This document shows, piece by piece, positions 57 through 60,495 of a stretch of DNA of 64,000 nucleotides. Every line of letters begins with the position of its first letter. Position 1 is the stretch's first letter. The notes under the pieces were generated by a model that did not search any database, was not told the origin of the DNA, and saw only the letters and a program-made list of their open reading frames with translations. Source of the stretch: Clostridia bacterium (GTDB taxonomy: Bacteria; Bacillota; Clostridia; Christensenellales; Borkfalkiaceae); the NCBI GenBank assembly GCA_017508485.1, contig JAFVYV010000011.1, positions 20,295 to 84,294 on the forward strand, given 5' to 3'. A program made the translations under genes and the position numbers.

Positions 57-671
57 ATGAAAAAACTAGGTATACTTATTGCATTAATTCTTTGCGTTAC
101 TATCGGTGGCGTTTACGCTACTTGGACATATACGCAAAACACAGACGTAGCCGATGAAACTATTAACATGACAATGAACTTAACTGACGTTGCATATAGC
201 GGTTCTTACGGTACTTATGAAATTAACACAGATTCTTTAAAGTTAAAGATTGACCCTAAAAAAGACACAACTCACACGACTGCACTTTACATTGAAGGTC
301 AAATCGTAATTACTTTTACACCTAACTCTGTTGCTCCAGAAGAAGTAAAAGAAAATGGTGTTGCTTCTACCTTTCAGTTTGGTTTAACAAACGCTAACTG
401 GACTTATGACGATGGTGACGGCGCTAAAAAGCTTATTACTTTAGCACACGACGAAGCTGAAGATATCGTTTGGGGCGAACCTGATGAAAACGGCGTATTT
501 ACTTACATAATTACTGCTGAAGCTCTTGCTGAACACATTAATTTAGCAGAATTCAACCTAGATACAAAGGTTAAGTATGACGAATTTAATACAGTTTTAG
601 GTAATGGTCAAATTACTATCACAGTTAGTGACGGTATAACTGCTACAAACCCTATTCCAAACAATCAATAA
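57..671 (+). CDS. Exported protein with SipW-cognate (TasA/camelysin-class) signal peptide; candidate major matrix/fibre subunit
   Basis: ATG preceded by AAGGAGAG (44-51). The N-terminus is MKK plus a hydrophobic helix ending IGGVYATWTY. The same GG-x-aromatic-A-T-W pattern occurs in the two downstream paralogous N-termini and resembles the TasA ...GGGTWA|AFND signal. It has its own terminator (688-720) and lies next to a SipW-type peptidase gene. Confidence 0.7.
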   Translation: MKKLGILIALILCVTIGGVYATWTYTQNTDVADETINMTMNLTDVAYSGSYGTYEINTDSLKLKIDPKKDTTHTTALYIEGQIVITFTPNSVAPEEVKENGVASTFQFGLTNANWTYDDGDGAKKLITLAHDEAEDIVWGEPDENGVFTYIITAEALAEHINLAEFNLDTKVKYDEFNTVLGNGQITITVSDGITATNPIPNNQ

Positions 672-687
672 TTGATACTGACATAAT

Positions 688-720
688 AAAGCCAGTCGTT
701 TTTTATCGGCTGGCTTTTTA
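688..720 (+). terminator. Rho-independent terminator after the 204-aa exported protein gene
   Basis: Stem GCCAGTCG (691-698) pairs with CGGCTGGC (707-714), with one G-U pair, followed by a T-run. Confidence 0.7.
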
Positions 721-745
721 TACATTTTTACTACAGTGACGAAAA

Positions 746-2005
746 ATGACAAAATTTGAGATATATTCTTTAATTCTTTGCATTATCGTTTTCGTTATGC
801 TTGTTAGCCTTTTTTCTTATATGCTAACTATTTTGATAAAGCAAACGTTAAAACACGTAAATGCAGGGTTAGAAGATGAAAATTTAATAAAAGAGTTTAC
901 TAACGCTAAAAAGCCAAGCAACTTTTCAAAATGGTTTAACGCAATTTTGAACGGTTTACTTTGCTTAATTTTTGGCGTTATTTTCGTTTCGTCACTTTAT
1001 ATAAGTTGTACTCAAAACACTTATTTTGAAAACGTACCTACTTATAGGGTTGTTTTAACTTCTTCTATGGAAGAAAAGCACGAAGATAACAAATATCTAA
1101 TAGAAAACAACCTAAACAACCAAATTAGCGCGTTTGATTTGATAGTTACTTACAAAATTCCTGATGAAGAAGACCTTAAACTTTACGACATAGTGGTTTA
1201 TGAAGTTGACGGAGTTTTAGTAGTGCATAGAATTGTTGGTATTGAAGACCCTAACCAATACCACCCTAACGAAAGATACTTCCTTTTACAAGGGGACGCA
1301 GTTGGTAAGCCTGACCGTTTCCCTGTAAAGTACTCTCAAATGAAGGGTATTTATAAAAATCAAAAAATACCGTTTATAGGTAGTTTCGTTCTATTTATGC
1401 AATCTCCTGCAGGTTGGCTTTGCATATTGTTGGTTGCAGGTAGTATAATTTTAACACCTATTCTTGAAAAGAAACTTTTAAATGCAAGAAAGGCAAGATT
1501 TTTACTTATAACTAACGGCTCTATTATAACGGAAGAAGTTACTATAACGGAAGATTTTGAAGATAACTTCCTTGACGACGGCGAAAATATTAAAGTAGTT
1601 CAAGCAAAAACTTTTGTGGAAAAACTTGAACTTTCAAGCGAACAGGTTAAAAAGAGATACAAAAAGATTGTTGATACGCTTAACCGTATTGAAGATATTC
1701 GTTTAACGGAAGCAAAAAGCCAACATTCTTATAAGGTTAAGGCAGAAGGTATTGCAAGGTTGTTCTTTAGGGGTAAAGACCTTAACGTAGCACTTCCGTT
1801 AAATCCAGGATATTATAAATATACAAAATATATCTTTACCGACCTTTCTTCTTCAACAAAACACCAAAACTACCCTGTATGTATTAAACTATCTAACGAT
1901 AGACATACCGACTGGGTTTGTGATTTAATTTTAGTTATTGCAGAAGAATTTGGACTTAAGGTTTTAGATAAGCCAGTTGACCCTAAGTTGGCAAATGGTG
2001 AATAG
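746..2005 (+). CDS. sipW: Signal peptidase I, SipW / ER-archaeal (S26B) type, with two N-terminal TM helices and a ~170-aa cytoplasmic C-terminal extension
   Basis: Catalytic Ser box VVLTSSMEE, His box VVHRIVG and LLQGDAVG box, as in Ser/His-type SipW peptidases. A TM helix (GWLCILLVAGSIILTPIL) follows the catalytic domain. An extra soluble domain (KTFVEKLELSSEQVKKRYKKIVDTL...VCDLILVIAEEFGLKV) comes after it. Confidence 0.75.
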   Translation: MTKFEIYSLILCIIVFVMLVSLFSYMLTILIKQTLKHVNAGLEDENLIKEFTNAKKPSNFSKWFNAILNGLLCLIFGVIFVSSLYISCTQNTYFENVPTYRVVLTSSMEEKHEDNKYLIENNLNNQISAFDLIVTYKIPDEEDLKLYDIVVYEVDGVLVVHRIVGIEDPNQYHPNERYFLLQGDAVGKPDRFPVKYSQMKGIYKNQKIPFIGSFVLFMQSPAGWLCILLVAGSIILTPILEKKLLNARKARFLLITNGSIITEEVTITEDFEDNFLDDGENIKVVQAKTFVEKLELSSEQVKKRYKKIVDTLNRIEDIRLTEAKSQHSYKVKAEGIARLFFRGKDLNVALPLNPGYYKYTKYIFTDLSSSTKHQNYPVCIKLSNDRHTDWVCDLILVIAEEFGLKVLDKPVDPKLANGE

Positions 2006-2006
2006 T

Positions 2007-3401
2007 ATGAAAAAGAGTATTGTATTATTCGCCTTTATAGCAGTTATAACCTTAATAGCATCTATCGGTGGCACTTTTGCTACTTGGTATTTTGCAGAAG
2101 AACCACCTACTCCCGTAATGAAGTCTGAAGATATAGGCATTTCTGAATTTGAATATAAGCCTTTCCAAGGAGTATATATAGATTCAATAATAGTATATGA
2201 TTTTAAGAACGTAACTGAACGTGCAACGGAATTTACTAAACCTACCGATATTTACTCTTCAGTTAGGGCAGTAGCAGGGTCGTACATAACTTATAAGGTT
2301 ACTTTTCATAATAACAGTTCGGTTAACCATTGGTTTGTAAAAAAATCTTTTACAAACTCATTAGTTCAAAACTCTTTGGTGGATAAACAAAATGGTGTTA
2401 CGATAACGCTGAAGGACCACCCTGGCGATAATTATTCTACATTTAATAATGAAGACTGGATTCCTGCAAACACCTATCGTGACGTTTATATTACCTATAC
2501 GTTTGGCTCTAATGCTATTAATGAAGTAACAACCTTTGTTTCATATATTTTTGGCGAAAAGATGGATGCCGTTTATACAAACTTTGTAGATATATTAAAC
2601 AATCAAGAGACGTATTCTTTTTTAGCAAAAGCCTTTGATGATAAATATTCAGCAACAGGCGAAGTTGTAATTGCAAATTTAGGCAAAGAAAAAGAAATAT
2701 TTGATACACTTTTTGGTGGTGACGTTACCATTAACGTTGACGGGCAAGACGTTCCTGTAACCATTATGATTAGGCGTGAAAACGTAGATGGCAAAAACAC
2801 GGGGGATGCTTATGCTAACGGACCAACTGGTTGCGAATACACGTTGTATATAACCATTGATGAATTAGATGCAAACAACAATCCTACGGGTAAAGCAACA
2901 GTCTTTGCCGTTACCTATTCTGAAGGGGGAATTTCTAATCAAGACAAATGGTATCAAGTTGGCGAATTGTATGAAGGTACTTCTTCTCTTGACGGCTATT
3001 TAGGGGAAGATGCTTTTGATTATACAACTTGGGAAGCCGTTCCTAAAGAATATATTGTTGCAGATGGAATAACCTATAAAATTGGTTTAGAACAAGGCGA
3101 CCAATATCAAAAGATGAAAAAACTTGAAGAAATTATGGCTGTTAGAGATAACGAAATCTTTAACAAAATTAATAATACGCAAATTCTAAAAAAGGTGTAC
3201 GCTATTATTCACAATGCCCAAAACAAAGGAAAGCCAGGTTATGACATTTTAAAACAAGCGTTTGAAGATGCATCACCATTTTATACCGTTAACAATAACG
3301 GTGGAGATATTCCTGTTAACACCAACTGCACAAGGGCTGAAATATTGCCATATATTGAAGCAATTCAAAAAGCGTTAGATTACTATAACCAAGTTAACTA
3401 A
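2007..3401 (+). CDS. Exported 464-aa protein with SipW-class signal peptide (accessory fibre/matrix component candidate)
   Basis: I prefer the ATG at 2007, 1 nt after the sipW TAG stop, over the TTG at 1977. It gives MKKSIVLFAFIAVITLIASIGGTFATWYFAEEPPTPV, which parallels the 3450 gene. The remainder has no motif I recognise. Confidence 0.7.
   Translation: MKKSIVLFAFIAVITLIASIGGTFATWYFAEEPPTPVMKSEDIGISEFEYKPFQGVYIDSIIVYDFKNVTERATEFTKPTDIYSSVRAVAGSYITYKVTFHNNSSVNHWFVKKSFTNSLVQNSLVDKQNGVTITLKDHPGDNYSTFNNEDWIPANTYRDVYITYTFGSNAINEVTTFVSYIFGEKMDAVYTNFVDILNNQETYSFLAKAFDDKYSATGEVVIANLGKEKEIFDTLFGGDVTINVDGQDVPVTIMIRRENVDGKNTGDAYANGPTGCEYTLYITIDELDANNNPTGKATVFAVTYSEGGISNQDKWYQVGELYEGTSSLDGYLGEDAFDYTTWEAVPKEYIVADGITYKIGLEQGDQYQKMKKLEEIMAVRDNEIFNKINNTQILKKVYAIIHNAQNKGKPGYDILKQAFEDASPFYTVNNNGGDIPVNTNCTRAEILPYIEAIQKALDYYNQVN
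2075..2110 (+). repeat. 36-nt block identical to 3521-3556 (encodes FATWYFAEEPPT)
   Basis: TTTTGCTACTTGGTATTTTGCAGAAGAACCACCTAC is present in both paralogs. The flanking codons are conserved only at the protein level. Confidence 0.9.
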
Positions 3402-3449
3402 CTTATACAAAAAATAGTACAAAAATAACGAAAAAAAGGAGGTATAAAA

Positions 3450-4049
3450 ATGTCAAAAAAAATAATGATTTCTTCAATATTTTTGGCTATATTGATATTT
3501 TGTGCTTCCATAAGTGGAGTTTTTGCTACTTGGTATTTTGCAGAAGAACCACCTACGCCTGTAAGTAAGGCAGAAGACATTGGAATATCTGAATTCGTTT
3601 GGAAGCCGGAAGAAATTTTGCCTGACGTTACGCCTGGTCAAAACTATTTAGACTTACACCAATCTATTTTAGAAAACGTAAAGGGTGGGCTTAACTCTTC
3701 AAAAGATACTTTAGAAGATGCCGTGCTTAGTGATAGAGACGGACTACTTCACAGTTCGCAAAACGTTCAAGGTGGTAACTTAGCGCACTTATTTATTACA
3801 AGTGCAACAAGGGAACTTGATTTTATTGTAGAATACGTTTCCGACAACGAGTTTTTGGTTTATATGTATGAAAACGCAAAGGCAGAAACAGGTGCCGTTG
3901 GGGTAACCAGAATTGCAGTATATAAAACCATTTATCTTAAAACGGCTGGCGATTGGGACGGAGCAGAAGCACAATACGGTTTTGCAACCGTTGACTTCTT
4001 CCCTAGTAGTAATATTATGGCGATAGACGTTAAAACTTGGTCAAGATAA
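3450..4049 (+). CDS. Exported 199-aa protein with SipW-class signal peptide (accessory component candidate)
   Basis: AAAGGAGG RBS at 3435-3442. N-terminus MSKKIMISSIFLAILIFCASISGVFATWYFAEEPPTPVSKAEDIGISEF. Terminator at 4061-4097. Confidence 0.75.
   Translation: MSKKIMISSIFLAILIFCASISGVFATWYFAEEPPTPVSKAEDIGISEFVWKPEEILPDVTPGQNYLDLHQSILENVKGGLNSSKDTLEDAVLSDRDGLLHSSQNVQGGNLAHLFITSATRELDFIVEYVSDNEFLVYMYENAKAETGAVGVTRIAVYKTIYLKTAGDWDGAEAQYGFATVDFFPSSNIMAIDVKTWSR
3521..3556 (+). repeat. Second copy of the 36-nt identical block (see 2075-2110)
   Basis: Perfect identity read directly from the sequence. Confidence 0.9.
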
Positions 4050-14349: not shown

Positions 14350-15573
14350 TTATATTTCTTTTTGTTGACCGTGGAAGGTTATTTGGTAGTCGTAGGTGGC
14401 AGTTTTTAAAATGCTTTCTTTATATTCTTCATAATATTTGTAGTGGTGGCGATAAAGTTTTTTAATTAAGTCAAAAACGTCAACGCCACTTTTACTTTTT
14501 TCTACCACCCTTTTTAGGTTGCTTTTTAAGTCTTCTTCTGCTTTTTTGCACACTTCTTCAGGGACGAAAGAATTGCCTTGCCCGTTTAGGTCGGTGTTTA
14601 TAGAATTTTGGTCGTCAATTTTAACAAAAACGTCTAACTTAAAGGTGACAAAAGGCTTATTATCAACAAACTTTAAGGATATTTTTTTGTTTACGGAAAG
14701 CACGTCAAGTAAAACGTTAAAATGCTCTCCTTGATAGACGCAGTCGTTTACTTCTAAAGTAGAGTAGTTTACCGTGGTTGTCATTAAGTTAACGGCAAAA
14801 GTTTCTTCCTTATTAAGTTTTTCTACCACTTTGCCTTTATTAAAAAGTAGGGTAGTGGTTGCATCAAAAAGGTTTTGCTTTTCTTTCCCTGACTGGCTTT
14901 GCCCTTCGCTACCACTTGAAGCGTTTTGTTTAGATAACTCGTTTCCCCCTTTTTCATTACCACTTTCTTCGCCTTCAGGGGGCAAAGTTTTTATATATGG
15001 TAAATAAGAGTAGCCACTTTTTCCGTAATATCCTATTGAAAAGGTTTTTATATCCGTTTCTAAAATGTCGTTATTTAGTCCCGTTTTCTTTAACAAAATT
15101 TTTTGTATTGCAAAAGAAGAAAGGTCGTCAAGTGGCGACTCCGTTTTTAACACTTCTTTTGCGCTATCTTCCGTTATGGCAATCAAGGTGGAGTCTTGCA
15201 CGTTTAAAGTTTTTGTAAAGTAGTTTACTAAATTTATAATATTTTCATCTAAAAAACTTTGGTTAATTAAAATAAGGTTGCAAAAAGAAAGTTTAGGGTA
15301 CCAGCCGGAAATTGAGCCTATTTTAGTTATGGCAGAACTTACCGTGCTACCCGTGGATGATATAACCGACTTTTCGTTTTTTGCCGAAGTGTTTTTTGCT
15401 TCGGGCAGGGCGATTTGCGCAGTAATTTCATACTCATCTTCCTTTTTGTCAATGCCTATTGCCGTTATAATTGCCGTTTTTTCAATATCAATTATTCCAA
15501 AGTCGTTAGAAAAGAATAGCAAAAAGCAAAAAGATACTATTATTATGATAATTCTAGTTTTTAGGCTTGTCAT
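14350..15573 (-). CDS. Ger(x)C-family spore germination protein
   Basis: It is the last gene of an A-B-C germinant receptor operon. The N-terminal TAIITAIGIDKKEDEYEITAQIALP is typical of GerAC-type proteins. No canonical lipobox Cys is present. Confidence 0.75.
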   Translation of the reverse strand: MTSLKTRIIIIIVSFCFLLFFSNDFGIIDIEKTAIITAIGIDKKEDEYEITAQIALPEAKNTSAKNEKSVISSTGSTVSSAITKIGSISGWYPKLSFCNLILINQSFLDENIINLVNYFTKTLNVQDSTLIAITEDSAKEVLKTESPLDDLSSFAIQKILLKKTGLNNDILETDIKTFSIGYYGKSGYSYLPYIKTLPPEGEESGNEKGGNELSKQNASSGSEGQSQSGKEKQNLFDATTTLLFNKGKVVEKLNKEETFAVNLMTTTVNYSTLEVNDCVYQGEHFNVLLDVLSVNKKISLKFVDNKPFVTFKLDVFVKIDDQNSINTDLNGQGNSFVPEEVCKKAEEDLKSNLKRVVEKSKSGVDVFDLIKKLYRHHYKYYEEYKESILKTATYDYQITFHGQQKEI

Positions 15574-16630
15574 TTTTTCTCCTTAAAAGTAGTAGCAGAA
15601 TAGGAATTAGGTTTGAAAACATAAAAAACAGTCCGCCAAAGTAGGTGTGAATAATATTTTGTAGCACCACGGAGTAGTCGTTTAGTAAAGAAATTAAAAG
15701 TAGGTTTAAGGTGGTCGCTATTATTGCAGGGTAAATTCTTTTCTTAAACGGAAAAACTTCCATTAAAATTTGCGTTTCAAAAAAGACGGGCATTGAAATT
15801 GATATCGTACCGACAAGTAGTAAACCGAAAACGGAAATATAGTCAACTCTACCTACGTTGTTTATAACGGTTGAGTATTTTGAAATGTCCGTTATTGCAA
15901 AAAGCGTTCTGTGTGCTATTGAGTCAAAGGCAAGGTAAAAGGCTATTAAAAACAAAATTACCAAAGTTAACGAAATTAAATAACTTATAACAATTTTGCC
16001 TATTCCTTTTTTGCCTAGTTCAAAACTACCTAAAAAGAAAAGTAGGTAAACTCCGTCGCCAAACCACCCTAAAGAATAGTAGGACGCAATAGGCACTTTT
16101 TTTATAAACGCACCTATAGGCAGTATTGCTCCAAAATCAAGACTTCCTAAACTTAAAATAAACACCAGTAAAAGACTAAACACGGTTATCAAAAAGAATA
16201 GGTCGCTTAGCCTTCCTATCGTTCTAACCTTTGTTATACATATCAGTAAAACCACAAAAAAGAATGGTAAAAAGGCAAGTATGGTTGGTGCCGTTTCGTA
16301 AAGGGTTAAGTTTACGTAGTTTTTTTGTTCAATTAGTAGTGGAAAGCCTTTTATTAAAAAGTAAAAAAAGTATAGAATAAGCACTATATTTTTAACCGTT
16401 TTACCAAAATGCACTTTTAGTAGGTCAAAAAAACTTAAGTTGTGTTTTTTGTATAGTTTTAGTATTGCAAATATGGTTAACAGGTCTAATAAACCGGTCA
16501 ATAGGGCAGAAATCCACAAGTCTTGTTCACTAAACCCACTTAAAACCGATGGCATTAAAATAAGTTTTGTGACGGGCATAAACGCTATAAAAAATAGGCA
16601 AACTTGCCTAACGGTTAGTTCTTTTTTCAT
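15554..16630 (-). CDS. Ger(x)B-family spore germination permease (APC superfamily)
   Basis: 358-aa polytopic protein that overlaps both neighbouring genes, in the position expected for GerAB. Confidence 0.75.
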   Translation of the reverse strand: MKKELTVRQVCLFFIAFMPVTKLILMPSVLSGFSEQDLWISALLTGLLDLLTIFAILKLYKKHNLSFFDLLKVHFGKTVKNIVLILYFFYFLIKGFPLLIEQKNYVNLTLYETAPTILAFLPFFFVVLLICITKVRTIGRLSDLFFLITVFSLLLVFILSLGSLDFGAILPIGAFIKKVPIASYYSLGWFGDGVYLLFFLGSFELGKKGIGKIVISYLISLTLVILFLIAFYLAFDSIAHRTLFAITDISKYSTVINNVGRVDYISVFGLLLVGTISISMPVFFETQILMEVFPFKKRIYPAIIATTLNLLLISLLNDYSVVLQNIIHTYFGGLFFMFSNLIPILLLLLRRKNDKPKN

Positions 16631-18068
16631 TTACTTTTTCCTTTATTTTTAATCTTGTTTTGTTTTTGCTACCTATGGTTATAGGTCTTTTGTTTAAGCC
16701 AAAAAGCGTTTCCTTATAAACGCTATCTTTTAAGTCCTTTTTAACAAGGGGAGAAAAAGGTGCAAGTAGTGGCGTTTCAAAAGTTTCAAAAGAAACCATA
16801 TATATTAGTAAGGCACAAAGCCCTAAAATTAAACCGTATCCACCTAAAGTACCTGCTACTACTAAAAACAAAAATCTAAGGAGCGAAAAGGTTTGTAATA
16901 GGTCTGGCACGGTGTATAAACAAATACCCGATAGGGCAATTATCATTAAGGCAGGGGCAGAAATTATACCTGCGTTTACTGCCGTTTCGCCAAGCACTAA
17001 ACCACCTACTATTGAAACGACCATACCAACGTATTTTGGCATACGAAGACTTGCTTCGTTTAATATTTCAAAAATTAGTAGGGTAAAAAACATTTCAAGG
17101 CTTGGAGATAAGGGTATACCTTTTATGCTGTTTACAATGGTCAGTAAAAATGGCAAGGGTATTAACTGCAAGTGAAAAAGTTGCGCCGATACGTAAAAAC
17201 TAGGTAGCGCTAAAGATAAAAATACTGAAGTTATTCTAATAAACCTTGCAAAGTTGGTTTTGTAAACGGAAGTATAGTAGTCTTCAGGACTTTGAAAGTC
17301 TTCAAGTAGCATATACGGTAAGGTTAACGCAACGGGTGAGCCGTCAACTATTATTGCAAGTCTGCCTTCAAGTATTTTGGCTACTAATACGTCGGGCTTT
17401 TCGGTCGTGCCGACCTGCTTAAAAAGTGAGTGTGCGTGGTCGCTTATTAACCTTGTTATATAAGACGAGTCTAAAATAGCGTCTATTTCAAACGACTTTA
17501 ATCTCTTTTTTATCTTTTCAGGCAGTCCTTTTTTTACTATACCTTTTATATAACAAATACAAACGGTGGTTTTTGACTGTTTGCCTATTGATAGGTTTTC
17601 AATTTGCAGTTTAGCCGTTTTTAGTCTTCTTCTAATTAAACTTAAGTTGCAAGTTATATCTTCAACAAACCCTTCTCTTGGTCCTTTTAGTACCACGGAA
17701 GTAGGTGGCTCTGTTATAGCCCTTTTTTCCACCCTTTTTACCCCTAAAGAAAAAGCCGTTGAAAGCCCGTCTATAATAAGTAGTGCGTTGCCGTTAGAGA
17801 TAGTGTCAAGCGCCAAATCGTAGTCGGTTATTTCCTCAGTTTCAGCGTTTATAAGCGCCTTTTTTATTCCTTTAACGCCACTAATATTTTGGTTAGAAAG
17901 GGGAAGTAATACCGTTTTAGAAATTAAAGCCTTGTCTGTTATAGAGTCAATAAAAACCAAAACACCCTTTTTGTTTTTTAACTTAATATCGTGAAAGATA
18001 ACGTCAAAAGAAGAAAGGTCTTTTTTAAGCGTTTCAATGTTTTTAGTTAGATTTTTTGATAATTTCAT
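16608..18068 (-). CDS. Ger(x)A-family spore germination protein
   Basis: 486 aa with a soluble N-terminal domain followed by TM helices. Contains VLKGPREGFVEDI and AIIVDGSP-like GerA motifs. Confidence 0.8.
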   Translation of the reverse strand: MKLSKNLTKNIETLKKDLSSFDVIFHDIKLKNKKGVLVFIDSITDKALISKTVLLPLSNQNISGVKGIKKALINAETEEITDYDLALDTISNGNALLIIDGLSTAFSLGVKRVEKRAITEPPTSVVLKGPREGFVEDITCNLSLIRRRLKTAKLQIENLSIGKQSKTTVCICYIKGIVKKGLPEKIKKRLKSFEIDAILDSSYITRLISDHAHSLFKQVGTTEKPDVLVAKILEGRLAIIVDGSPVALTLPYMLLEDFQSPEDYYTSVYKTNFARFIRITSVFLSLALPSFYVSAQLFHLQLIPLPFLLTIVNSIKGIPLSPSLEMFFTLLIFEILNEASLRMPKYVGMVVSIVGGLVLGETAVNAGIISAPALMIIALSGICLYTVPDLLQTFSLLRFLFLVVAGTLGGYGLILGLCALLIYMVSFETFETPLLAPFSPLVKKDLKDSVYKETLFGLNKRPITIGSKNKTRLKIKEKVNEKRTNR

Positions 18069-57498: not shown

Positions 57499-58224
57499 GT
57501 GAAGTTTTTGAGAAAAATATATAATAAAGGTTTACAAATAGTTGTAAATTCAATAATAGTTTTGGTTATTGCCGTGTCTTATCTACTCTTTCTTCTTCCT
57601 GAAAGGACCATTACCATTTCTAAAGGGGAAGACGATGCCATTTATTATGGAGATAAAGACTTAAAAAGGGTTTCGTTAATGTTTAACGTTTACGAAAATA
57701 AAGAAGTTGTTTACAGCATTTTAGAAGTGCTTAAAAGTAAAGGCGTAAAGGCAACCTTTTTTATGGGTGGTTGTTTTGCTGACGACAACAAGGAACTTTT
57801 GGTAAAAATTGCCAACGACGGGCACGAACTTGCTAACCACGGCTATTTTCACAAAGACCACAAAAAACTGTCAATAGAAGAAAATAAAAAGGAAATTTTT
57901 AACACGGAGCAGGTTATAAAAAGTTTAACTGGTGTTAAAACCAACCTTTTTGCTCCACCAAGTGGTAGTTTTTCAAAAAGTACGCTTATTGCCTCAAAAG
58001 AACTTGGGTATAAGGTTATTATGTGGTCAAAAGATACTATTGACTGGCGCGATAGCGACCAAAAACTTATTTTTAATAGGGCAACCAAAAATCTTGAAAA
58101 TGGTGATTTAGTTTTAATGCACCCTAAAGAACATACCCTTTTAGCCTTGCCTAAAATAATTGATTTTTATATTGAAAGTGGGTTTAGCGTCGTTACCGTT
58201 TCGGAAAATATTGGAGGGGTATAA
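57499..58224 (+). CDS. Polysaccharide deacetylase family (NodB) sporulation-type protein, PdaB-like
   Basis: N-terminal TM and NodB motifs (HELANHGYFH, LFAPPSG, LMHP). The start could be GTG 57499 or TTG 57508. Confidence 0.75.
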   Translation: MKFLRKIYNKGLQIVVNSIIVLVIAVSYLLFLLPERTITISKGEDDAIYYGDKDLKRVSLMFNVYENKEVVYSILEVLKSKGVKATFFMGGCFADDNKELLVKIANDGHELANHGYFHKDHKKLSIEENKKEIFNTEQVIKSLTGVKTNLFAPPSGSFSKSTLIASKELGYKVIMWSKDTIDWRDSDQKLIFNRATKNLENGDLVLMHPKEHTLLALPKIIDFYIESGFSVVTVSENIGGV

Positions 58225-59465
58225 TGCAATTTTACAAAAAATACGATAACGGTTTAAGGGTTGTCGTTAATAAGATGGATTCAATTAAGTCGGTTTCCGT
58301 TGGCGTTTTGGTTAAAACGGGTAGCGTTAACGAAAGTAGTGAACTAAACGGTATTTCACACTACATTGAACATATGCTTTTTAAAGGCACTACTACTAAA
58401 ACGGCTTTTGAAATTTCTGACACTATTGACAGTATCGGCGCACAAATAAACGCCTTTACTTCAAAAGAAATTACCTGTTATTACACCAAATCAACAAGTG
58501 AACATTTTAGAAAAAGTTTTGAAGTTTTATCTGATATTTTCTTTAACTCTACCTTTTTAGAAGAAGAAAGCAAAAAGGAAAAGGGCGTTATTATTGAAGA
58601 AATAAATATGTATGAAGATATGCCTGAAGACCTTTGCTTAGATTTACTTAGCGAAGCATTTTTTGGCAAAACCGGGCTTGGACAAACTATTATAGGTAAC
58701 GAACAAACGGTTAATAGTTTTACTAAAGATATGGTTTTACGCTATATGGACGAGTATTATACGCCGGAAAACGTTGTTATTTCAATTTCAGGTAATATTG
58801 ATGAAAAACTTGCCTTTGAAGTTGTTGAAGAAGAGTTCTTAAAACTATTTACAAGAAAGAATAATAAGCGTTCAAGTATTATAGAAAAGCCTACCTTTAA
58901 CGGCAATATATTAAAGGTAAAAGATATTGAACAATCACATATAGCAATAGCCTTTCCTACTTTTAACGTTGCTGATGATAGAAGTGATATTTTTAATATT
59001 GCAAACACCGTTTTAGGTGGGGGTATGAGTAGCAGACTTTTCCAAACGGTTAGGGAAAAGTTAGGTCTTGCTTATTCAGTTTATTCATATCCGTCTTTAT
59101 ACGAAACTAACGGCGTTTTAGATATTTACGCAGGGGTTAATCCAAAAAGTAGAGATTTAGCCTTTGAAGAAATATTAAAAGAAATTAAAAAGATTAAAAA
59201 AGGCATAACTGAAAAGGAATTTTTAAGGGGTAGAGAACAAATTAAATCTTCCTTTATAATGGGGCAAGAAAACAGCGCAACGCAAATGCTTTTATACGGT
59301 AAGTTTATGTTGTTTTTTGATAAACTTTTCAGTTTTGATGAAAAGATTGAAAGGATAAACAAAACCACTTTAACTGCCGTTAACGATATTTTAGAAGAAA
59401 GTTTTGACTTTTCAAAAATGGCGTTGGCAACGGTTGGCAGAGATGATAAAAAATTAACCTATTAA
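58224..59465 (+). CDS. M16-family (pitrilysin/insulinase) zinc peptidase
   Basis: HYIEHMLFKGT (HxxEH) motif; 413 aa. Confidence 0.85.
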   Translation: MQFYKKYDNGLRVVVNKMDSIKSVSVGVLVKTGSVNESSELNGISHYIEHMLFKGTTTKTAFEISDTIDSIGAQINAFTSKEITCYYTKSTSEHFRKSFEVLSDIFFNSTFLEEESKKEKGVIIEEINMYEDMPEDLCLDLLSEAFFGKTGLGQTIIGNEQTVNSFTKDMVLRYMDEYYTPENVVISISGNIDEKLAFEVVEEEFLKLFTRKNNKRSSIIEKPTFNGNILKVKDIEQSHIAIAFPTFNVADDRSDIFNIANTVLGGGMSSRLFQTVREKLGLAYSVYSYPSLYETNGVLDIYAGVNPKSRDLAFEEILKEIKKIKKGITEKEFLRGREQIKSSFIMGQENSATQMLLYGKFMLFFDKLFSFDEKIERINKTTLTAVNDILEESFDFSKMALATVGRDDKKLTY

Positions 59466-59471
59466 AATTAA

Positions 59472-59519
59472 AAACTAAAATTAAAAGACTACCAAACGGT
59501 AGTCTTTTTTGTCTATTTT
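59472..59519. repeat. 48-bp perfect direct repeat, copy 1 (contains a bidirectional terminator hairpin)
   Basis: AAACTAAAATTAAAAGACTACCAAACGGTAGTCTTTTTTGTCTATTTT is identical to 60304-60351. The hairpin is GACTACC-AAAC-GGTAGTC. Confidence 0.95.
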
Positions 59520-59722
59520 AAGCCTAATATATCGTCGGCAGAGATATCTAAAATTTCACAAATATTGGCAAAAGTATCAAGTGATGGGTACTTGTCAAGT
59601 CGCATATATTTGCTTACAGTAGATGGGTTAATTCCCAACTTTTCAGCCAGTTCTTTTTGCGAAATTGTGCCGTATTGTATTGCTTCACGCAATCTTTTTT
59701 GAATATCTTCTATTTTTATCAT
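59513..59722 (-). CDS. Small XRE/Cro-CI-family HTH regulator (69 aa)
   Basis: MIKIEDIQKRLREAIQYGTISQKELAEKLGINPSTVSKYM is an HTH_3 motif. The longer track ORF (to 59983) adds a low-complexity tail across the divergent promoter and gene, so I rejected it. Confidence 0.75.
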   Translation of the reverse strand: MIKIEDIQKRLREAIQYGTISQKELAEKLGINPSTVSKYMRLDKYPSLDTFANICEILDISADDILGLK

Positions 59723-59734
59723 ATTATAATAATA

Positions 59735-59779
59735 GCACAATGTGCAACTTTTGCTTGACAAAAGGCACAATGTGCCTTT
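59735..59779. promoter_or_regulatory. Two palindromic operators sharing the core GCACA-A-TGTGC, 30 bp centre to centre
   Basis: Operator 1 is at 59735-59745. Operator 2 is at 59765-59775 and extends to a 19-bp perfect palindrome, AAAGGCACAATGTGCCTTT (59761-59779). Confidence 0.7.
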
Positions 59780-59784
59780 ATAAT
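59755..59784 (+). promoter_or_regulatory. Promoter of the zinc-ribbon membrane protein gene, with its spacer filled by operator 2
   Basis: TTGACA (59755-59760), 18-nt spacer, TATAAT (59779-59784). Confidence 0.6.
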
Positions 59785-59816
59785 ATATTTTATTAAAACG
59801 AACGGAGGAATATACA

Positions 59817-60296
59817 ATGTTTTGTAGAATTTGTGGTAATGAAGTAAATGAACAAGCAGTAGTATGCCCAAAATGTGGCTGTGCAATAGACGATGCTTTT
59901 GCTAAAAAGAAAGTAAAAGAAAAAAATGACGATGAAAGAAACAAAATTGAAGACGTCGATACTGAGTTTAAAGACACAAGCAAGGCATGTATTGCTTTTA
60001 ATTACGTGTCAGTAGGTTTAATATGCTTAACTTTAATGTTTGGTATTTTATCTATCGCTTATGGTTGGATAGATGCTCATTTTGTCAATGGGTATAGTTA
60101 TGCTTATTATTATCCATATTTCGGATTAGCGCTTACGGCATTTATATCGTCTTTAGTAATGTTAGGTTTTTCTATAACAAGTTTTGTTCTTGGTTTTAAG
60201 AATAAATCTAAAAGAAACATTAGTGACATATTGTTTATAGTTTCAATTTTCATATTTATATTTGTTATTATTGTTATGATAATATCACAATGGTAA
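59817..60296 (+). CDS. Zinc-ribbon (CxxC...CxxC) membrane protein, 159 aa
   Basis: GGAGG RBS. MFCRICGNEVNEQAVVCPKCG zinc ribbon, a K/E-rich linker and three TM helices. Confidence 0.75.
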   Translation: MFCRICGNEVNEQAVVCPKCGCAIDDAFAKKKVKEKNDDERNKIEDVDTEFKDTSKACIAFNYVSVGLICLTLMFGILSIAYGWIDAHFVNGYSYAYYYPYFGLALTAFISSLVMLGFSITSFVLGFKNKSKRNISDILFIVSIFIFIFVIIVMIISQW

Positions 60297-60303
60297 AACC
60301 AAC

Positions 60304-60351
60304 AAACTAAAATTAAAAGACTACCAAACGGTAGTCTTTTTTGTCTATTTT
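60304..60351. repeat. 48-bp perfect direct repeat, copy 2
   Basis: Identical to 59472-59519. It starts 8 nt after the zinc-ribbon gene stop and ends 1 nt before the stop of a convergent small ORF. Confidence 0.95.
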
Positions 60352-60495
60352 TTAGTTTGCGCCTCCAAAAAGTCCACAACCGTTTTGCGTAGTGGTTAGT
60401 AGTGCTAAAAGTAGTAGCAGTTGGGTGGTGTTTATAGAGCCACCGTTTAAGAGTAAAAACAAAAGAGCAATTAAAACTAAATTGTTGTTATTCAC
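60352..60495 (-). CDS. Unannotated 47-aa hydrophobic peptide
   Basis: The minus strand reads AAGGAGG, 7 nt, then GTG. It encodes MNNNNLVLIALLFLLLNGGSINTTQLLLLLALLTTTQNGCGLFGGAN and ends at the bidirectional terminator. It is below the track's size cut-off. Confidence 0.5.
   Translation of the reverse strand: MNNNNLVLIALLFLLLNGGSINTTQLLLLLALLTTTQNGCGLFGGAN

Follow-up and report, generated by a model that had tools for sequence, protein, structure and literature searches.

How does a pair of genes come to lie between two perfect copies of a transcription terminator, among neighbouring genes with no recognizable recombinase? The question is raised by positions 59,472 to 60,351 of a 64,000-nucleotide stretch of DNA from a ruminant-gut Clostridia bacterium (contig JAFVYV010000011.1 of assembly GCA_017508485.1), which we call the window throughout. 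Here, a gene for a 69-amino-acid (69-aa) XRE-family helix-turn-helix (HTH) repressor and a divergent gene for a zinc-ribbon membrane protein (the cargo) form a small cassette between 48-bp direct repeats. The arrangement is a strain-specific insertion of this XRE-plus-cargo cassette, one that duplicated a native terminator and probably originated independently of a recombinase. New here are the empty-site proof, the target-derived repeat with a joint inside a stop codon, and a wider family of modules, some of them with matching flanking terminators.

The locus may thus provide a natural example, with matched empty sites, of a self-regulated gene pair gained without a recombinase and with its neighbours undisturbed. 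Terminator matches at two other loci suggest a repeatable route by which small accessory genes enter gut Clostridia, be it a replication/repair accident or an enzyme still to be identified. Moreover, a family of 69-aa repressors, each guarding a hypervariable membrane or surface protein, looks like a distributed and switchable cell-envelope regulon of uncultured ruminant-gut bacteria. If the event was a one-off illegitimate recombination, its value is modest and mainly descriptive.

A gene pair between two copies of a terminator

The 48-mer AAACTAAAATTAAAAGACTACCAAACGGTAGTCTTTTTTGTCTATTTT is present in exact copies at 59472-59519 (copy 1) and 60304-60351 (copy 2), and is the sole long perfect repeat of the window. 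A third copy with up to three mismatches is found neither elsewhere in the 64 kb nor in 100 shuffles, and the 25-nt hairpin core also occurs twice in the window. Folding gives either copy an 11-bp stem and a 4-nt loop (-9.8 kcal/mol, z = -4.45), and each scores as a terminator on both strands. The hairpin occupies 59483-59508 in copy 1 (AAAAGACTACC-AAAC-GGTAGTCTTTT, 11-bp stem) and, by terminator scoring, 60315-60340 in copy 2. Exact matching and shuffles bear out the first-pass annotation of this DNA, which had reported two 48-bp direct repeats with the hairpin GACTACC-AAAC-GGTAGTC. It had also named the case that would undo its reading, a terminator repeat dispersed behind many genes; with the 48-mer and the 25-nt core each present only twice in the window, this case is ruled out.

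Within the repeat, a 7-bp GC-containing stem and its 4-nt loop (18 nt) lie 15 nt from either end. We do not rely on the 15 + 18 + 15 symmetry; an outer palindrome arm (AAACTAAAA / TTTTAGTTT) is asymmetric about the repeat. A blastn comparison extends a weak similarity about 9 nt further left, to both upstream stop codons (58 nt, 2 mismatches, 1 gap); in such A/T-rich sequence, this leftward extension has no clear significance. Exact scans of GTDB species genomes and IMG/VR returned one unrelated hairpin each. These are identical 25-nt hairpins (AAAGACTACCAAACGGTAGTCTTTT) at 4779-4803 of L012, a metagenome-assembled genome (MAG) of Candidatus Limimorpha caballi (Bacteroidales), and at 3335-3359 of L198, a GC-richer IMG/VR contig. 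Both are gene-end terminators and appear to reflect chance convergence of simple terminators.

The gene layout described by the first-pass annotation also stands: exactly two divergent genes lie between the repeats. To the left, outside the insert, is an M16 (insulinase-family) peptidase gene (58224-59465, + strand; identified by family scan and synteny), whose stop codon at 59463-59465 ends 6 nt ahead of copy 1. The XRE gene (59513-59722, - strand; 69 aa) overlaps copy 1 by its stop codon, the final sense codon and a single base of the codon next to it. The cargo gene (59817-60296, + strand; 159 aa; supported by its open reading frame (ORF), an alignment and a structure model) stops 7 nt before copy 2. 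To the right, again outside the insert, a hydrophobic 47-aa small ORF (60352-60495, - strand) abuts copy 2. Copy 1 would act as terminator for both the M16 peptidase gene (+) and XRE (-), and copy 2, identical over its 48 bp, for the zinc-ribbon gene (+) and the 47-aa ORF (-). The interior between the repeats measures 784 bp and has a GC content of 30.4%, near the 33-34% of the flanks.

Could the repeat itself have misled the assembly? Short-k graphs do branch at it, and the depth of repeat unitigs is noisy (1.4x expected in sequencing runs X1 and X2, 0.55x in X5). Yet ten further contigs, which come from several studies and several assemblers (megahit k = 141, scaffolds, Logan), share 99.8-100% identity with the window. 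Both junctions are crossed by several of these contigs, and for this reason we do not regard the arrangement as a misassembly. Independent k = 141 assemblies and scaffolders do so identically in many samples, and the unitig depths of flanks and interior are equal. An assembly artefact is therefore a practically negligible explanation. The word length of Logan unitigs (k = 31) is below the 48 bp of the repeat, which puts a circle or an excision joint beyond detection there.

Empty sites and the direction of the event

The first-pass annotation read the arrangement as an insertion and suggested a search for empty sites in relatives. Such sites exist, both in a sister lineage and in closer strains. 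The sister lineage, the nearest other one in the protein database, is represented by 24 contigs, and its M16 peptidase shares 92% amino-acid and 88% nucleotide identity with that of the window. The gap from the M16 gene to the ArsR gene is 315 bp in all 24 contigs; in the window, subtraction of one repeat and the interior leaves 318 bp. The sister's single terminator (TAAAATTAAAAGGCTAC-TTATG-GTAGCCTTTTTTTGTCTATTTTTTT) aligns base for base with the 48-mer, in the same place and with the same tail (...TTTTTTGTCTATTTT), and its stem shows compensatory changes (GGCTAC/GTAGCC in the sister, GACTACC/GGTAGTC in the window). Because it is orthologous in the sister, the 48-mer as a whole must be older than the cassette, even the seven bases now coding for the end of XRE. 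By this comparison, the 48-bp repeats are native target sequence that was duplicated on insertion, and were not brought in by the insert.

Empty sites closer to the window come from bovine-gut runs. In X15, a contig with five flank differences from the window fuses position 59471 to 60304, skipping 832 positions, and its single 48-mer matches at every position. In X20, a contig passes from 59350-59519 straight to TTAGTTGGCATTTCC..., the end of the small ORF. Removal of one repeat plus the interior thus restores exactly the order of M16 peptidase gene, shared terminator and small ORF, as had been predicted. A variant in the M16 gene (59426 G>A) is found in X15, X18, X19 and X20, and is not reported in the cassette-bearing runs compared over this region (X1, X2, X3 and X14). 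The sister copy of the 48-mer differs at about 8 positions, while the two copies of the window are identical at 48/48. By parsimony, these patterns are best read as a recent insertion in the near-clonal lineage of the window.

Some further observations concern the same region. Look-alike terminators of about 34 nt exist in the metagenomes (one in X1 and X2 at different depth, another in X15), and a scan of metagenome contigs with the M16 protein gave relatives of at most 40% identity only. Just upstream of the hairpin, 59463-59488 holds a 13-nt tandem duplication (TAAAATTAAAAAC / TAAAATTAAAAGAC) of which the sister lineage has a single copy; it belongs to the 48-mer and would for that reason be older than the insertion. 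The 47-aa ORF (MNNNNLVLIALLFLLLNGG...CGLFGGAN) is very hydrophobic, and the sister lineage keeps it with an in-frame 3-nt indel. It has zero matches among Pfam, NCBIfam and PHROG families, and is probably a real small membrane protein.

Junctions of the insert

Where exactly does the insert begin and end? We aligned eight homologous XRE genes from five loci, that is, the gene of the window and those of seven relatives. The relatives' genes end in ...GG(N)TT(A/G)AAATAA (also given as ...TTAAAATAA), with the stop codon TAA in 7/7. The gene of the window ends in ...TTAAAATAG (in a longer reading, ...GGCTTAAAATAG) and stops with TAG. From the G of this stop codon onward, the sequence is that of the target, as AAAATAGACAAAAAA on this strand of both the sister and the X15 allele shows. 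Since the target and the family-typical XRE end share the bases TATTTT/AAAATA, the left joint must lie inside them. In effect, the XRE gene would have exchanged its own stop codon for that of the target, with the protein unchanged.

The right joint is sharp and falls between ...TGGTAAAACCAAC and AAACTAAAATT.... The insert is essentially bounded by the two stop codons and, apart from the central intergenic region, has only 7 nt (AACCAAC) of non-coding sequence. Both original 3' untranslated regions of the cassette thus appear to have been replaced in effect by copies of the target's terminator. The exact cargo protein is found at this site only, and its nearest relative in a word index is 44% identical.

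These junctions do not sit well with the att-like site proposed in the first-pass annotation: all 48 bp are native target, and the left joint lies in the XRE stop codon.

A wider family with variable cargo

The XRE protein has more than 850 relatives with E < 1e-10. More than 120 of them are clusters at >=88% identity, named only as 'Clostridia bacterium' MAG proteins and mostly from ruminant-gut assemblies. We looked up six further variants, which occupy six other chromosomal sites: between genes for ABC/FtsX and an abhydrolase, MntP and Band_7, AP endonuclease 2 and RuvX, GFO/IDH/MocA and DUF1846, TP methylase and dUTPase, and HSP70 and an ABC exporter. At all of them, XRE is divergent from a small cargo with the same intergenic architecture. 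We found no paper on XRE-plus-zinc-ribbon/DUF4190 modules in a literature search. The cassette is, on these comparisons, a member of a large undescribed chromosomal family in ruminant-gut Clostridia that occupies seven or more loci.

Across most loci, the XRE copies share 91-97% protein identity and 77-85% DNA identity, with 24-35 synonymous versus 2-6 non-synonymous codon differences. The outlier is the copy at locus L013 (84% protein identity, 30 versus 11 codon differences). Such figures indicate that the copies are old and under very strong constraint, and do not stem from a recent burst. The cargo, on the other hand, varies: it may be a zinc-ribbon/DUF4190 protein of about 100 aa, a zinc-ribbon protein of 140-165 aa with three transmembrane (TM) helices (the family to which the window's cargo belongs), a DUF4234 protein, a 540-aa leucine-rich repeat (LRR)/collagen protein, or small ORFs. 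Different cargo alleles occur at one site next to an identical repressor. A hidden Markov model (HMM) of the window's cargo places it in the same family as the cargo at L013, L015/16/21, L179 and L166.

The promoter/operator region points in the same direction. A 30-mer from it (59757-59786), from which at least three other sequences branch off, has 4-5x the surrounding depth in X1, X3 and X4. This branching is the reason why public contigs end at 59822 or start at 59757, and the depth points to several paralogous modules per community or per genome.

Two of the loci show additional features. At the HSP70 to ABC-exporter locus (L188-L197), one XRE, called as a 75-aa protein (P0048), stands beside cargo that varies among contigs: 530-563-aa LRR_5/collagen-repeat proteins, a 101-aa DUF4190 protein, a 160-aa protein, or a pair of 209 + 141 aa. 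Two breakpoints, in the left flank and in the operator region, stay fixed, and the locus resembles a hypervariable slot for surface proteins. An array of short GC-rich hairpins, each followed by ATTCAC (AATTCACGCGCCTAAGGCGCGATTCACGGCGAAGCCGATTCACGCCCGAAGGGCAATTCACGGC), stands between the locus's XRE-side terminator and its ABC exporter gene (L188 2395-2470, also L193 1080-1150). At the GFO/DUF1846 locus, a tandem segment of about 120 bp (82% identity) lies downstream of XRE (L170 2742-2984 and L171 2768-2937), and is absent from L169.

Matching terminators at other loci

If insertion at a terminator is repeatable, other loci may also carry matching terminators on their two sides. For 13 locus/allele types, we compared the region past the cargo stop with the region past the XRE stop, in both orientations and against shuffles. 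The window gives a best alignment score of 49 in direct orientation (z = 30). Two other cases stand out: L167, with a best score of 31 (z = 19), and L193/L196, with 31.5 in direct orientation (z = 22). The other ten types stay at z <= 4.6, with L179 (4.6) and L191 (3.0) borderline and eight showing nothing; flanking repeats had also been absent from the first XRE loci examined (L013-L016, L022-L028 and L169-L173).

At L167, the terminator after the AP endonuclease gene reads AAAAATGCTCGGCG-AAA-CGCCGAGCATTTT, and the one after XRE reads ...GCTCGGCG-TTT-CGCCGAGC...; the two match over 34 nt at 97%, with an identical stem and a flipped loop. L193 and L196 have AAAACGCAGGTTGTTACGCCTGCGTTTTT on either side, in direct orientation and again over 34 nt at 97%. 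In each of the three, the last codons of XRE mark the start of the similarity (AAAATAG in the window, AATAAAA in L167, TAAAAT(A/G)A in L193), which runs through the hairpin to the T tract, over 48 nt in the window, about 45 nt in L167 and about 41-44 nt in L193. The pattern is not taken to be chance, because no other terminator pair in the 64-kb window is alike in this way.

Mobility genes and known types of element

Does anything at the locus encode its own movement? Within about 5 kb on either side, the genes are housekeeping ones, those for PNPase, a polysaccharide deacetylase, the M16 peptidase, ArsR, UvrC, a HAD hydrolase and Lon. A family scan of the ten window ORFs that were not recognized by eye revealed no recombinase family, and the other large ORFs (about 35) are housekeeping genes by reading of their translations (Ruv, QueA, Tgt, Rho, Pot, Sec, RecJ, RelA and GerA). 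The first-pass annotation was thus right that no integrase or recombinase is linked to the cassette. No integrase-bearing element occupies the site in the 24 sister contigs or in the ten cassette contigs. Near the seven or more loci of the family, we found no integrase or transposase except for one integrase about 4.5 kb from the XRE gene of L023, which is missing from the same locus in other contigs.

The same annotation likened the content of the cassette to prophage-immunity, abortive-infection or toxin-like modules, a link that the searches did not bring out. A tblastn search of 50,697 phage records gave no match for the cargo and only generic matches of at most 48% identity for XRE. In IMG/VR, XRE relatives reach no more than about 48% identity across most of the protein, apart from one 24-residue segment at 63%. 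PLSDB returned nothing among plasmids. PADLOC gave matches to the XRE HTH region only and none to the cargo, while NCBIfam and PHROGs matched XRE at HTH level only and the cargo not at all or weakly, below threshold and with function-unknown families (four such matches in PHROGs). With no specific relatives in the phage, IMG/VR and PLSDB searches, we reject a phage or plasmid origin. A prophage remnant or immunity module would call for closer kin than generic phage regulators, and the PADLOC result contains no anti-phage defence system beyond a generic HTH. Nor does the pair look like a type II toxin-antitoxin system: its genes are divergent with separate promoters, and the cargo matches no toxin family.

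Insertion sequences (ISs) and miniature transposable elements with inverted repeats (MITEs) share with the cassette a duplicated target site, here 48 bp of native sequence. The interior has no terminal inverted repeats and, in a Pfam scan, no transposase domain. It has been argued that a 48-bp duplication is too long for a transposase. This is not strictly so: IS1634 and IS1549 generate direct repeats of 8-514 bp (PMC2266710), well above the usual 2-14 bp and, as here, tens of bp long. These two are autonomous elements with a DDE transposase and terminal inverted repeats, whereas the cassette has neither. An integron gene cassette, with an attC site at its end and an intI/attI platform, is also a poor model, since the only boundary palindrome is the resident terminator and is present at empty sites too; moreover, the cassette has its own promoter and two genes, and no integrase is in its neighbourhood.

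Closer in spirit are Neisseria's minimal mobile elements (MMEs; Saunders and Snyder 2002, cited in PMC1797815), described there as one to three genes between conserved chromosomal genes. They are strain-variable gene blocks, present, absent or replaced by an alternative, without mobility genes of their own. The site studied here shows this presence and absence between conserved genes without mobility genes, and alternative cargo alleles are seen at other XRE loci, with fixed breakpoints in the flank and in XRE/operator, as homologous exchange predicts. A difference is that 48 bp of the target are duplicated here, with a joint inside a stop codon. To our knowledge, flanking direct repeats or a target duplication are not part of the MME concept.

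The CIMEs (cis-mobilizable elements) of Streptococcus and other Firmicutes are also gene blocks between direct repeats without integration or transfer genes (PMC6323972). Their repeats are the attL and attR of a cognate integrase from an integrative and conjugative (ICE) or integrative and mobilizable (IME) element, and CIMEs derive from ICEs by deletion (PMC6323972). The repeats of the cassette are a duplicated native terminator, and its interior holds only XRE and the zinc-ribbon gene, with no plasmid or phage matches; neither the att repeats nor the ICE/IME descent of a CIME is therefore found here. In size, too, the 0.8-kb cassette is far smaller than the kilobase-scale CIMEs.

Rearrangements by template switching (fork stalling and template switching, FoSTeS, or break-induced replication mediated by microhomology, MMBIR; PMC5120786) resemble the locus in three respects: a foreign insertion, microhomology at the joint and a duplicated flanking target. 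They differ in having been described mainly in eukaryotes and for larger segments, and in that the mechanism here is one that we infer. We know of no report of a bacterial gene-cassette family spread by template switching.

Origin of the insertion

How, then, did the cassette arrive? We favour an insertion at the terminator that needed no recombinase and was guided by microhomology at the A/T tracts flanking the hairpin, as the two joints suggest. In a template-switch version, synthesis would stall after the hairpin, and the nascent strand would leave the target past the T tract. Its ...CTATTTT 3' end would then pair with AAAATA at the end of a donor XRE gene and copy the cassette, and a return to the A-rich tract upstream of the hairpin would lead to the hairpin region being copied twice. 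Stalled forks and strand switches are classically associated with hairpins. Alternatively, a staggered break, capture of a fragment and fill-in would give the same product. Microhomology is favoured because the repeats are native, the joint at the stop codon lies in shared bases and the repeat lengths differ between loci, and also because there is no conserved cargo-side end, no inverted repeat and no recombinase. For this locus, such joining fits better than the att x att integration of a circular cassette put forward earlier, for which no element with a cognate integrase is found at the site.

Several points weigh against this reading. The mechanism would have to be read from two joints and was not observed; the microhomology of the left joint (TATTTT/AAAATA) is short and A/T-rich, and that of the right joint is not assessable, as the donor copy was not found. 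Among the window, L167 and L193, the target origin of the repeats is shown, by empty sites, for the window alone. At the L193 locus, gene conversion between the two terminators is possible, because the stem at the homologous position on the left is a different one in the sister allele L191. Ten other locus/allele types have no clear duplication. In addition, the three similar repeat lengths and the shared XRE-end motif would fit a sequence-specific enzyme acting in trans equally well. Finally, the roughly 35 larger ORFs of the window were classed by eye from their translations and not by family scan, and, within the genome, the search for a recombinase and a donor covered the window and matching contigs.

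An enzyme acting in trans is the basis of one unlikely alternative, in which the cassette is non-autonomous and owes its movement to a recombinase with its gene at another place (in the manner of CIMEs, or a new integrase or transposase that targets hairpins). Such an enzyme would recognize the XRE-end motif and the hairpin, and would act by a staggered cut of about 45 bp or at an att-like core. It would account for three loci whose similar repeats all start at (T)AAAATRA in the last XRE codons and span the whole hairpin, and for a core hairpin 15 nt from each end of the 48-mer. The long and variable duplications of IS1634 and IS1549, and CIMEs that retain attL and attR without an integrase, offer precedents. 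Against it stand the lack of an integrase or transposase near the family's loci (L023 excepted), of conserved cargo-side ends and of terminal inverted repeats, along with a repeat that is entirely native target. Furthermore, the XRE copies differ by 15-23% in DNA with no sign of recent transposition bursts, and the duplication is missing at most loci. A distinctly unlikely variant would make the XRE-plus-membrane-protein modules a new class of non-autonomous mobile cassette whose enzyme, encoded by the host or by an element, recognizes (T)AAAATRA beside a terminator hairpin and cuts about 41-48 bp apart; owing to this stagger around the hairpin, each insertion would duplicate the whole bidirectional terminator. 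It would formally be like the repeat duplication by Cas1-Cas2 or casposases, but carry a 0.8-kb regulated gene cassette.

The other rivals invoke homologous recombination or a different order of events. A RecA-dependent Campbell integration would start from a circle of 832 bp (the interior with one 48-mer), which recombination between the repeats had excised from this locus in another cell; once taken up, the circle would re-integrate by a single crossover in the 48-bp homology. Low-frequency homologous recombination is feasible between perfect repeats of 48 bp, neither copy departs from the empty-site allele at any of the 48 positions, and the site is polymorphic among close strains. We nevertheless consider this quite improbable: it explains spread from strain to strain but not the first insertion, for which a prior duplication event is needed, and the cassette contigs, 99.8-100% identical over several kb, look like one clone. 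The cassette might also have come with its own terminator, which short-patch gene conversion later overwrote with the native one. The HSP70/ABC alleles, which share the left flank up to the A tract while their stems differ (GCGGAT..ATCCGC in L191, the XRE-side stem in L193), speak for such a process. It is very improbable for the window, where 15 nt outside the hairpin are identical on either side and the identity stops abruptly, where the 7 non-coding nt (AACCAAC) leave no trace of a separate terminator, and where prior homology would be needed. Lastly, the arrangement could be ancestral, and the 'empty' sites of the sister lineage and of X15/X20 the solo-repeat footprints of deletion. Recombination between the 48-bp repeats would indeed yield exactly the empty site seen. 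This is highly improbable given that at least two independent losses would be required, that the cassette is found in only one near-clonal contig set, and that the two copies in the window are identical although the sister copy has its roughly 8 differences and the flanking DNA differs by 12%.

The repressor and its putative operators

Whatever the route, the cassette carries the elements of a regulated unit. The XRE protein belongs to Pfam HTH_3 (PF01381; 44.6 bits against a cut-off of 23, E = 1.5e-11). A sigma-70-type promoter with 12/12 consensus bases (TTGACA-18-TATAAT; 59755-59784, + strand) precedes the cargo gene, and a Shine-Dalgarno sequence, GGAGGA, can be read at 59804-59809 (+), 7 nt before its ATG. 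Two operator-like palindromes GCACAATGTGC lie 30 bp apart: one at 59735-59745, beyond the -35 of the cargo promoter and near the XRE start, and one at 59765-59775, between the -35 and -10 of that promoter. Both are kept in all eight aligned XRE regions.

XRE would thus be expected to bind both GCACAATGTGC palindromes, over the cargo promoter and over its own start region, and to keep the cargo off until some signal arrives; it probably represses its own promoter too. The repressors hardly differ from copy to copy and their operators are conserved, so that the modules, though scattered, probably make up a single cross-regulated set. As for the neighbours, duplication of a bidirectional terminator would let all four genes keep or gain a terminator, and the insertion may for this reason have been transcriptionally harmless to them.

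The design is reminiscent of lambda-type repressor/operator systems (Cro/CI type), in that a small HTH protein, a divergent target gene and two palindromic operators over the promoters appear to be combined. It differs from the lambda switch in having no prophage context and no peptidase or sensor domain, in controlling small membrane or surface proteins, and in the many near-identical XRE copies at different chromosomal loci. The start of XRE (59718-59730) lacks a Shine-Dalgarno sequence, with a TATAAT immediately adjoining the ATG (TATTATTATAATATG). By analogy with lambda cI, this suggests a leaderless XRE mRNA; a scan of the XRE promoter gave no convincing -35.

The cargo protein

The cargo is predicted to combine an N-terminal CxxC...CxxC zinc ribbon, a charged linker and three TM helices, with a beta hairpin after the first of them. 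The structure model, a confident one (predicted local distance difference test score, pLDDT, 87.8) has TM helices at residues 49-81, 102-126 and 130-158 and the beta hairpin at 84-99. The predicted topology is that of a cytoplasmic zinc ribbon, a disordered charged linker and an external beta hairpin. The model has no significant fold match in PDB or BFVD.

The window's protein scores 16.4 bits against Zn_Ribbon_1 (PF13240; cut-off 25), and 38 of the 46 family members have E < 0.01. In the 46-sequence alignment, the four cysteines are invariant, and a basic loop motif, GFK..N(K/R)..(K/R)F.SD, is recurrent although not strictly conserved. A Pfam MFS_1 match is spurious (below threshold, and in one of the 46 members). 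An exhaustive HMMER search collected 792 cargo cluster representatives, 73 of them with E < 1e-10, mostly aligned end to end. Roles in toxicity, in signalling or in the envelope are all conceivable.

Other observations in the window

Two further regions of the window deserve mention. The first, 57-4049, holds three secreted or membrane-anchored ORFs (57-671, 1977-3401 and 3450-4049) that share a hydrophobic segment at the N terminus, with an ATW(T/Y) motif after it (in two of the ORFs, ATWYFAEEPPTPV). Interspersed with these ORFs is that of a 419-aa membrane protein (746-2005), and a 104-nt repeat recurs within the cluster (2058-2161 versus 3504-3607). None of the four ORFs has a Pfam match; the cluster may resemble fibre operons of the SipW/TasA type.

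The second region, 14350-18068 on the - strand, comprises three ORFs read by eye as a spore-germination receptor operon of the GerA type. If this reading holds, the organism probably forms spores, a point relevant to the question whether repair of the non-homologous end-joining (NHEJ) type could capture DNA.

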